64,000 bases of DNA from an uncultured Candidatus Actinomarina sp. (GTDB lineage: Bacteria > Actinomycetota > Acidimicrobiia > Actinomarinales > Actinomarinaceae). The translations under genes were made by a program, and so were the position numbers. Below, one piece after another: positions 25,173 to 26,423 of this stretch. A model generated the notes under the pieces. It saw only the letters and a list, made by a program, of their open reading frames with translations, ran no database searches and was not told where the DNA came from. The stretch is from the NCBI GenBank assembly GCA_902578135.1, contig CACHBU010000005.1:827-64826 (forward strand), written 5' to 3'. Within the stretch, counting starts at the first letter, position 1. Each line of letters begins with the position of its first letter.

Positions 25173-25508
25173 ATGAATAGTGAAAATGTAGGTTTATTTT
25201 CTAAATTAGATATAAGAGTTGGAAAAATTGTTAAAGCTGAAGTATTTGAAGAAGCAATTAAACCTGCATACATTCTAACTATTGATTTTGGAGAAGAAAT
25301 TGGCCTCAAAAAAACAAGTGCTCAAATTACAAATTATGATTTAAATAGTCTTTCAGATAAAAAATGTATAGCTGTTATTAATTTAGGAGAAAAGCAAATC
25401 GGTCCAATAATGAGCCAGTGTTTAGTATTAGGTTCAATATCAAATAATGGAGATGTGCTTTTATTGTCACCTGAAGAGGGTTCAGAGTTAGGCGACAGAG
25501 TATCTTAA
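25173..25508 (+). CDS. csaA: CsaA-type tRNA-binding protein/chaperone
   Basis: LDIRVGKI, KPAY.L.IDFG.EIG.K.SAQIT, S.CLVLG; start reassigned. Confidence 0.9.
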   Translation: MNSENVGLFSKLDIRVGKIVKAEVFEEAIKPAYILTIDFGEEIGLKKTSAQITNYDLNSLSDKKCIAVINLGEKQIGPIMSQCLVLGSISNNGDVLLLSPEEGSELGDRVS

Positions 25509-25978
25509 GCTAAATATTTTTTAAAATAGCCGGGATTAAATGTGCCAACTCTTCTGGCTAATTTTTCACCTTTGTGATTTATCAAAACATATGTTGGAGT
25601 ATTGAATAATTTGTACTCATCAATAAATGGATGGTCTTTTTGTTTACTAGCATTAATTGATACAAAAAATACTTCTGGATTTTCTTTTTTAAATTCATCA
25701 ACTATGAATTTTGAAGCAGTACAGCCAAGTCAATAATCAGAATAAAATTCAATAATTGAATTTTCATAATCTGCATATGAATAAGATGAGTCAACCATTT
25801 TGCGATTTGAAGTATATGAAATCAAAAAATAAAATATTCCAAGAACAAAAAAACTCAGGAAATATATGACAGCGGAAGGCTCAAATGCAAAAAAGAATAT
25901 TGCTAATCCAATAATCCAGCCTAAAGGTAAATAAATTAAACTATACCGGTTAAGTATCTTTAAAAATTTTCTTTTCAT
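25505..25978 (-). CDS. Membrane-anchored thioredoxin-fold protein with in-frame TGA (UxxC), candidate selenoprotein, 157 aa
   Basis: IIEFYSDY-TGA-LGC, then 74 open codons including NTPTYVLIN.KG; TAA overlaps csaA stop. Confidence 0.75.
25691..25711 (-). promoter_or_regulatory. Candidate bacterial SECIS hairpin
   Basis: AAAUUCAU-AGUUG-AUGAAUUU; loop starts 26 nt after UGA with GU at loop positions 2-3; AU-rich, weak stem. Confidence 0.5.
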
Positions 25979-26012
25979 GAGTCCCTTATCAAACCTTATA
26001 ATATACTTGAAT

Positions 26013-26423
26013 ATGGACTTCGTTAAAGAATTAAAAAAAAGAGGATATAGGATTACAAATCCAAGAGAAGTTATTTGCAATATTTTAGAAACCTCAGGCC
26101 ACGAACACTTTACTGTTGATAAGCTTCACAACTTGGCAATCAAAGAAGATAAAAATATAGATTTAGCAACTGTATATAGAACTCTAGAATTACTGGAAGA
26201 CATAGATATTGTAGAACACATGCATCAAGCCCATGGCTCAGGAATTTATTACTTAAAAGGTGAAAATGATAACAATCATATAATATGTGATTTTTGTAAA
26301 TCAATTTACGACCTTACAAAAGAAACAAAAGATAGGATTAATAAACTACTTGTAAAAGACAGTAATTTTAATTTAATTAATCACAATTTTATATATTCTG
26401 GAGTATGTAAAAATTGCAATTAA
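26013..26423 (+). CDS. nur: Fur-family regulator, Nur (nickel) subtype
   Basis: DLATVYRTL, HxHxxHG (HMHQAHG), HIICDFC, CKNC. Confidence 0.75.
   Translation: MDFVKELKKRGYRITNPREVICNILETSGHEHFTVDKLHNLAIKEDKNIDLATVYRTLELLEDIDIVEHMHQAHGSGIYYLKGENDNNHIICDFCKSIYDLTKETKDRINKLLVKDSNFNLINHNFIYSGVCKNCN

Follow-up and report, generated by a model that had tools for sequence, protein, structure and literature searches.

Does the TGA at positions 25732-25730 of the 64,000-nt Candidatus Actinomarina stretch analysed here (the window, from contig CACHBU010000005.1) end a short membrane peptide, or is it read as selenocysteine (Sec) within a longer redox protein? The open reading frame (ORF) in question lies on the minus strand and meets the TGA at the place where the first Cys of a thioredoxin CxxC motif belongs. 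At a probability of about 85%, we explain the locus as a genuine selenoprotein gene of Candidatus Actinomarina, in which Sec is inserted by way of a selenocysteine insertion sequence (SECIS) hairpin to give a membrane-tethered oxidoreductase. Decoding of UGA codon 83 as Sec through an intragenic SECIS hairpin is, in our assessment, nearly certain. A membrane-tethered selenol/thiol-disulfide oxidoreductase with a thioredoxin-type redox function is a highly probable product, to judge from its modelled fold and its motif.

Translated through the TGA, the frame reads ...IIEFYSDY-U-LGCTASKFIVDEF...FNTPTYVLINHKG..., with U-L-G-CTASK following directly on codon 82. The 74 codons that stay open past the TGA, among them FNTPTYVLINHKG, fill a region (25508-25729) occupied by no other ORF of 60 or more amino acids. 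The TAA that closes the frame shares 2 nt with the stop codon of the convergent gene csaA (25506-25508).

The TGA is conserved throughout most of the genus. A search with the single protein gave a near-full-length match carrying exactly one TGA in 31 of 36 other species genomes of the same genus, at identities of 43-94%. The remaining genomes of the genus gave one weak match only and, in four cases, no match; genomes of other families in the class gave none (0/24). With a family profile as the query, a full-length match with exactly one TGA was obtained in 54 of the 63 other genomes of the genus. The TGA lies at column 83 in all 30 loci that were extracted, and the 29 complete copies all have 157 codons and are free of indels. 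Eight further loci from named Actinomarina records all read SDY-U-LGC. A TGA column shared by 30/30 and 8/8 loci is far beyond chance, and the motif U-L-G-C is complete in 29 of the 30.

Selection on the two halves of the gene was compared by the method of Nei and Gojobori. The ratio of nonsynonymous to synonymous substitution rates (dN/dS) was 0.06-0.32 past the TGA and 0.03-0.42 ahead of it, the ranges being those of the pairs with unsaturated dS among the 18 pairs examined. Thus, the part after the TGA is translated. The base calls are reproduced by an independent metagenome DNA contig (run X4, record 17, 324 nt), which spans the TGA with 0 differences.

Homologues carry Cys in place of the Sec. 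The sister-genus genome searched (n = 1, same family) gave a full-length match without any stop. This locus, L071, encodes a 178-aa protein (...EFSSIY-C-AGC) with TGT at the Sec position, and its gene order is conserved (acyltransferase, FMN reductase, csaA, the gene itself, Fur, CbiM/Q). An exhaustive HMMER search added distant proteins, about two dozen in number and ∼160 aa long, that share this architecture: an N-x-Y-S motif in the N-terminus, then a pair of hydrophobic helices and a thioredoxin domain with TPTF. In most of them the Sec column is occupied by Cys. Those with names are Chloroflexota or SAR202 proteins called 'hypothetical protein' or 'thiol-disulfide isomerase/thioredoxin'. 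In the family alignment A1 (35 rows), 18 distant homologues with two transmembrane (TM) helices and a thioredoxin domain have Cys at the Sec column; S80, C86 and P128 never vary, and N10 and S13 hardly do. A query of the ESM Atlas with the Cys form P0086 returned only unnamed 157-aa clusters.

The machinery for Sec insertion is encoded in the source genome (0.99 Mb in 27 contigs, 87% complete). It comprises a tRNA-Sec of 75.4 bits with the anticodon TCA, which reads UGA, a selA gene (375.8 bits), a full-length selB-like gene directly after selA, and a selD gene (370.9 bits) that carries a single in-frame TGA of its own. All four components (tRNA-Sec, SelA, SelB and SelD) are therefore present, SelB by way of the selB-like gene. 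The related loci that come from named records belong to Candidatus Actinomarina, the OCS155 cluster. Actinomarina, with a genome of ∼1 Mb, is among the most abundant bacteria of the surface ocean.

Much of this had been anticipated in an earlier note made from the letters of the stretch. The interrupted frame that it described, with the TGA in the place of the first Cys, 74 open codons and a cis-Pro motif behind it, is all in the sequence, as are the overlap with the csaA stop and the filling of an otherwise empty gap; the two N-terminal TM helices that it saw recur in the structural model described below. Its proposal that codon 83 encodes Sec is upheld by the conserved TGA, the Cys homologues, the selection downstream, the hairpin and the machinery, and the selA, selB, selC and selD genes that it expected elsewhere were found, with tRNA-Sec(UCA) and a selB-like gene among them. 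The checks that it named came out in its favour: the TGA is kept in congeners, it aligns to Cys in other homologues (TGT in the sister genus, and the distant Cys forms), dN/dS past it is below 1, and the same TGA is read in an independent run.

A bacterial SECIS, as described in the available text of PMC9312934 and in the legend to Figure 7 of PMC2398784, is a stem-loop lying directly 3' of the UGA, its apical loop containing a conserved G. A stem-loop of this kind is present here. The hairpin AAAUUCAU-AGUUG-AUGAAUUU (25711-25691) begins 19 nt past the UGA, covers codons 90-96 and has a stem of 7-8 bp; the consensus of its apical loop is AGUUR. Synonymous variation is nearly absent from this part of the gene. 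Third-position entropy averages 0.20 bits over codons 89-96, the lowest of any 8-codon window in the gene, compared with 1.13 bits over codons 1-82, 1.09 over codons 84-88 and 1.18 over codons 97-157. The codons TCA, ATA and GTT are frozen in 30/30 rows and TTC in 29/30. Within Actinomarina, the 7-bp core can pair in 33/33 distinct sequences; five of the eight pairs are invariant, and the others show one compensatory change and three G-U variants. Between +10 and +30 of the Cys orthologue in the sister genus, no comparable hairpin was found. An Rfam scan of 25450-26050 with E values up to 10 returned no SECIS family, giving only chance matches to small nucleolar RNAs and small RNAs.

A second Sec lineage provides an independent view of the hairpin. 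Four full-length marine metagenome loci (L113-L116) of P0112, a distant 'W form' of the protein, have a TGA at the homologous codon (4/4; YFYSNY-U-IAC), on contigs with a G+C content (GC) of 0.29-0.32. The scan, run with one protein, gave six loci, of which these four were used; L117 and L118, the latter covering residues 1-77 only, were set aside. At the same distance from the UGA they carry AAGCCUGU-AGUUG-AUAGGCUU, identical in the loop and different in the stem. In the joint alignment, four of the eight pairs change on both sides (four compensatory pair changes). This corresponds to 17 compensatory double-change cells, where shuffling gives 2.4 on average (0/500 shuffles reach 17), and to a covariation score of 0.236, compared with 0.133 after shuffling and at most 0.107 in slid registers. 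We consider the hairpin of the second Sec lineage to be the decisive evidence for the predicted RNA signal.

In a maximum-likelihood tree of the 35 rows, the Actinomarina Sec forms and P0075 make up one group, and P0112 and the three remaining W forms share a starred clade (95/81) that adjoins the SAR202-type Cys forms. The starred branches require the Sec label to have changed two or more times, in a tree that is midpoint-rooted, built on short proteins, and in which the W forms P0075, P0104, P0147 and P0166 are without a confirmed TGA.

The hairpin block also stands out in the assembly graphs of two DNA runs (X4 and X10), where unitigs of 39-47 nt lie exactly over 25685-25732. Their depth is 78-162, 4-10 times that of the flanks (12-24), which would fit a sequence common to many co-occurring strains.

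The read-through protein was modelled with AlphaFold using the family alignment, giving a mean predicted local distance difference test (pLDDT) of 88.6 and a predicted TM-score (pTM) of 0.79. Helices at residues 2-11, 13-31 and 35-57 precede a thioredoxin domain made up of strand 73-79, helix 84-99, strand 103-109, helix 117-121, strands 129-134 and 139-144, and helix 149-156. In the model, residue 83 is placed at the N-terminus of the first thioredoxin helix (84-99), and Pro128 just before strand 129-134; the two marks of a thioredoxin fold, a redox dyad where helix 1 starts and a loop with the cis-Pro, are thus both predicted. The nearest solved structures found by Foldseek are thioredoxins, with target-normalised TM-scores of 0.65-0.79 and identities of 18-24%. 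Across the TGA, the Pfam models Thioredoxin_2 (PF13098; residues 76-156, E = 2.4e-5) and Thioredoxin (PF00085; residues 72-146, E = 1.3e-4) both align. The N-terminus is rich in Lys and Arg, and a conserved N10-x-x-S13 motif lies ahead of the first TM helix (TM1).

As to the earlier note's suggestion of an undescribed membrane redoxin family, one part of it stands: for a family that joins two TM helices to a thioredoxin domain, neither a Pfam or NCBIfam model nor a name was found in the sources consulted. The suggestion is only partly right, however, since thioredoxin-fold UxxC proteins are the commonest known kind of selenoprotein, and Sec in Actinomarina is already the subject of a preprint of April 2026 (discussed below). 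The GOS_C UxxC model NF045500 was not among the nine NCBIfam families matched by P0001 at E values up to 0.1.

A simple mechanism can be proposed. Sec-tRNA(Sec) and the SelB-like factor would decode the UGA at codon 83, SelB being recruited by the short hairpin inside the coding sequence (a stem of 7-8 bp, an AGUUR loop, +19 nt). The N-terminus of the product would be positively charged and followed by a membrane hairpin of two helices, joined by an acidic outer loop of 3-7 residues, and then by a compact thioredoxin fold, with Sec83 at the N-terminus of helix 84-99, Cys86 as the resolving residue and cis-Pro128 opposite. Catalysis would cycle through a Sec83-Cys86 selenenylsulfide, and a domain in the cytoplasm could be recycled by TrxB and NADPH.

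On which side of the membrane the thioredoxin domain lies can be predicted from the charges around the helices. In 11 cleanly segmented rows (Actinomarina, the sister genus and P0075), four to five Lys or Arg precede TM1, none occurs in the acidic loop of 3-7 residues between TM1 and TM2, and one to three follow just past TM2. By the positive-inside rule, the Actinomarina domain probably faces the cytoplasm, with the N-terminus inside. The 16 cleanly segmented rows of the other, Chloroflexota-type branch have 0-1 Lys or Arg at the N-terminus and 1-4 in the loop, which suggests that homologues in the two branches could have inverted membrane topologies. This count omits seven mis-segmented rows; one further row, P0093, resembles the Actinomarina group.

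An unlikely alternative is that Sec is decoded and the domain faces outward, the protein serving as a TlpA/ResA-like extracytoplasmic reductant fed by the membrane electron carrier CcdA, as predicted for the Chloroflexota-type homologues. Homologous families normally share a topology, and the charges of the 16 members from outside the Actinomarinaceae predict an outside domain; the genome encodes CcdA, and among its other selenoproteins is a TlpA-like one that bears a lipoprotein-type signal and is clearly exported. However, the charges of Actinomarina and its sister genus are the reverse of what an outward domain calls for (4-5 Lys or Arg ahead of TM1, none in the loop, 1-3 past TM2), and the protein scores far below the cut-offs of the models for outward-facing relatives (ResA, NF002854, 13.8 versus 170; TlpA and DsbE likewise). 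TrxB (411.9 bits), a canonical TrxA (109.4 bits) and CcdA (PF02683, 59.5 bits) are all encoded, so an electron source is available for either orientation.

A much less probable alternative, to which we give very little credence, is that the TGA is a true stop. Only a two-TM peptide of 82 residues would then be made, and the sequence downstream would be what is left of a pseudogene, the product of an error in sequencing, or a domain translated on its own. Standard gene callers do close the ORF at the TGA, and N-terminal fragments of 82 aa are found in the database clusters (P0079, P0063). Against this stand the purifying selection seen downstream, a length of 157 codons kept without indels in 29/29 complete loci at identities down to 43%, the independent contig that confirms the TGA, and the absence of ATG, GTG and TTG from the 11 codons past the TGA (L-G-C-T-A-S-K-F-I-V-D). 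Moreover, the active site would be left without its nucleophile, and the Cys orthologues are single ORFs.

The database entries need a further explanation. Of the homologues inspected, 20 span the site, and every one of them has W at position 83; the same clusters also contain fragments that end at the TGA. Public collections (P0002-P0061 and others) hold the protein as 157-aa entries with Trp83, or as fragments cut at the TGA. The Trp83 entries are an annotation artefact, produced by reading TGA under code 4 on short low-GC contigs, and they conceal the selenoprotein. In the source genome TGA is an ordinary stop, ending 159 of the 707 stop-to-stop ORFs of at least 200 codons; release factor 2 is present (450.5 bits, above the cut-off), tRNA-Trp has the anticodon CCA, and the sole tRNA that reads UGA is tRNA-Sec. 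That one of the standard amino acids (Trp, Gly or Cys) is inserted at the UGA through a reassigned code or suppression, for which those 20/20 W entries and the AT-rich genome (GC 0.29-0.36) might be cited, is thus the least credible alternative of all, the more so because W-x-x-C is not a redox motif, the homologues have C-x-x-C, and a dedicated hairpin lies past the codon.

A number of observations weigh against our preferred reading of the locus as a membrane-tethered selenoprotein. Nine of the 63 congeneric genomes have no copy of the gene. The selB-like gene scores 203.9 bits, under the cut-off of 242.25. Taken by itself, the Actinomarina alignment shows weak covariation, reached by 50 of 500 shuffles, and the strong covariation of the joint alignment amounts to essentially one between-lineage comparison of four independent pairs. 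The hairpin is also thermodynamically weak (−4.7 kcal/mol, rank 23 of 447 among the 27-nt windows of its own coding sequence), and the folding z-score of a 76-nt stretch, 0.23, is not significant. Contigs from RNA libraries (runs X15 and X16, of one study) cover both flanks of the TGA, and none bridges it with 31 nt on each side; DNA carry-over into these libraries is possible, so they say nothing about expression. Both Pfam matches are near misses (PF13098, 25.1 versus a gathering threshold of 27; PF00085, 22.4 versus 23.5), and an NCBIfam search with the read-through protein reached no curated family. The cytoplasmic orientation is a prediction from the charge rule, and the Chloroflexota-type homologues have the opposite charge pattern. 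One locus, L028 of genome G033, has TTT (Phe) at codon 86 and Ala in place of Thr as the next residue. Finally, that SelB binds the hairpin and that the protein contains selenium is inferred.

As regards L028, a near-identical database protein, P0023, has Cys at residue 86; Phe86 may reflect strain variation, an error or a one-residue Sec enzyme. The congeners without a copy are G003, G007, G008, G025, G027, G121, G150, G180 and G216. In the five that were checked, the FMN reductase is missing too and the acyltransferase is found only as a paralogue of 29-36% identity. The whole block is thus missing from the checked assemblies, which are 60-87% complete, so either loss or an assembly gap is indicated.

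The coordinates of the gene, its parts and its neighbours are collected in Table 1. The csaA gene abuts the selenoprotein gene end-to-end in 39/39 loci, and the Fur-family gene is adjacent in 38/39, the exception being interrupted by a contig end; the start codons of the selenoprotein and Fur-family genes are 34 bp apart. The neighbourhood comprises the Fur-family regulator, CsaA, CbiQ, a PlsC-type acyltransferase and an FMN reductase, whose Pfam and NCBIfam annotations gave no specific functional lead for the selenoprotein. The convergent stops of csaA and the selenoprotein gene (25505-25508) form a palindromic TTAA, which leaves no space for a terminator.

Table 1. Positions in the window of the candidate selenoprotein gene, its parts and its neighbours
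Feature	Position	Strand	Remarks
Selenoprotein coding sequence	25505..25978	−	157 codons plus TAA; no indels in 29/29 complete orthologous loci
Start codon ATG	25978-25976	−	
AAGGGA, Shine-Dalgarno-like motif			5 nt 5' of the selenoprotein-gene ATG
UGA, Sec codon 83	25730..25732	−	First residue of the U-L-G-C redox motif
Cys86 codon, resolving cysteine	25721..25723	−	C86 column invariant in family alignment A1
Candidate bacterial SECIS hairpin	25691..25711	−	Arms 25711-25704 and 25698-25691; apical loop AGUUG 25703-25699
SECIS 7-bp core	25710-25692	−	
Predicted TM helix 1, residues 13-31	25886..25942	−	AlphaFold secondary structure, hydropathy, charge
Predicted TM helix 2, residues 35-57	25808..25876	−	AlphaFold, hydropathy, charge
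Thioredoxin-fold domain, residues 70-157	25508..25771	−	Pfam near-misses, AlphaFold, Foldseek
cis-Pro128 codon	25595-25597	−	
Stop codon TAA of the selenoprotein gene	25507-25505	−	
csaA, convergent neighbour (tRNA-binding/CsaA chaperone family)	25173..25508	+	TIGR02222 120.7 bits, above cut-off
Fur-family regulator, divergent neighbour	26013..26423	+	Pfam FUR 95.1 bits; subtype unresolved

Five selenoprotein genes were counted in the genome, encoding SelD, a SelW-like protein, an AhpD-like protein, a TlpA-like protein and the two-TM thioredoxin. The TlpA/ResA-like gene (G000:C12:6961-7413, plus strand, locus L047/L072, outside the window) encodes a lipoprotein-type signal and the motif FWADY-U-SICRQE; of 40 other congeners, 35 have it with a single TGA. 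In 30/30 of its loci there is a 6-bp stem that covaries, with the loop AGUUG (17) or AGUUA (13). This hairpin starts 10 nt past the UGA, and its reading frame and encoded residues differ from those of the hairpin in the two-TM gene. The AhpD-like, peroxidase-related frame (G000:C14:3239-3796, plus strand, locus L046, also outside the window; TIGR01926, 134.8 bits) reads ECEY-U-IRAH, a CxxU motif, with a hairpin UCUCC-GGUC-GGAGA ∼20 nt past the UGA. A further candidate, C27:959 (TICP-U-YV), was dropped, as it had no Pfam match. A genome-wide scan for TGA-interrupted frames by codon bias was too noisy, antisense frames scoring well. A gap-filling filter performed better, yet it missed the two-TM gene, probably by rejecting its upstream ORF for overlapping Fur.

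A wider reading joins these threads, and we offer it tentatively, at slightly under even odds. The locus would belong to an unnamed family of thioredoxins with a two-helix hairpin and an N-x-x-S motif, in which Sec and Cys would have traded places two or more times in marine lineages, in Actinomarina and again in the clade beside the SAR202-type Chloroflexota forms. Each Sec lineage would have placed its SECIS on conserved Val-Asp codons that give AGUUG. In the Actinomarinaceae the topology would be inverted and the selenol cytoplasmic, and the AGUUR hairpin would be a genus-wide SelB element missed by Rfam.

What is new here is the unnamed family of two-TM thioredoxins, the syntenic Sec/Cys pair, the second Sec lineage and the AGUUR-loop SECIS in two Actinomarina selenoprotein genes. 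UxxC thioredoxin-type selenoproteins of marine origin were known already, and general knowledge of selenoproteins is unchanged. A systematic annotation error is corrected, by which databases list the protein as ending at residue 82 or as containing a false Trp. The AGUUR-loop, short-stem consensus can serve in searches for the remaining selenoproteome of the genus, and the syntenic pair of Sec and Cys orthologues is a natural test case for why Sec is retained, in an Actinomarina genome of ∼1 Mb that maintains the whole Sec pathway for some five proteins.

The Sargasso Sea survey had already turned up UxxC selenoproteins of the thioredoxin type (PMC1088965), and in the available text of the Global Ocean Sampling (GOS) survey the UxxC thioredoxin types are among the most abundant groups, Trx-like 1 having 321 sequences (PMC2398784). 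With the GOS and Sargasso groups (Trx, Trx-like 1, 2 and 3) the Actinomarina protein shares the thioredoxin fold, Sec for the first Cys of CxxC, Cys homologues, a SECIS just past the UGA whose apical loop has a G, and an origin at the marine surface. Unlike the GOS groups, as far as their published domain and motif descriptions allow comparison, it has an N-terminal two-TM hairpin with N-x-x-S; the word 'transmembrane' is absent from the available text of that paper (PMC2398784). Trx-like 3 is given there as marine-enriched, with 212 Sec and 183 Cys sequences and a weak match to cd02950 (PMC2398784), and by description it may be the same family. Many thioredoxin-like families are listed in a 2026 review, with the GOS_C thioredoxin-fold UxxC selenoprotein as NF045500 in its Table 1; in the portion of its text available, 'transmembrane' and 'Actinomarina' have 0 occurrences each (PMC13188914).

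The closest comparison is with the April 2026 preprint 'Actinomarina, resolved' (10.64898/2026.04.03.716425), which, in the text available, reports selC, selA, selD and a divergent selB in 84/84 complete genomes, ∼5 selenoproteins per genome predicted by deep-Sep, a Sec-type selD and 69 'families'. The genus is the same, and the number of selenoproteins per genome agrees with the five counted here. Four Rfam SECIS models gave no significant match there either. The same text names a 78-aa family, selD and K07090, with 0 occurrences of 'thioredoxin'; the two-TM gene may or may not be among the 69 'families'.

With the classical thioredoxin (TrxA; PF00085, TIGR01068), its best structural match, the Actinomarina protein has in common the fold, the dyad at the N-terminus of helix 1 and the cis-Pro loop. 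It differs from TrxA in being membrane-anchored, in having Sec for Cys and in having L-G in place of the usual middle residues; it scores 28.8 bits against the TIGR01068 cut-off of 96.8, and the canonical TrxA of the genome is a separate protein. Membrane-anchored, extracytoplasmic thioredoxin-like reductants include TlpA, ResA, DsbE-CcmG and the TxlA-HCF164 type. As in these, a small thioredoxin-fold domain is held at the membrane by N-terminal hydrophobic segments, and Sec forms exist among the TlpA-like proteins, one of them in this genome. In those families the domain is attached by a single signal-anchor or a lipobox and points outward; the Actinomarina protein is held by a hairpin of two helices, and its domain is predicted to point inward.

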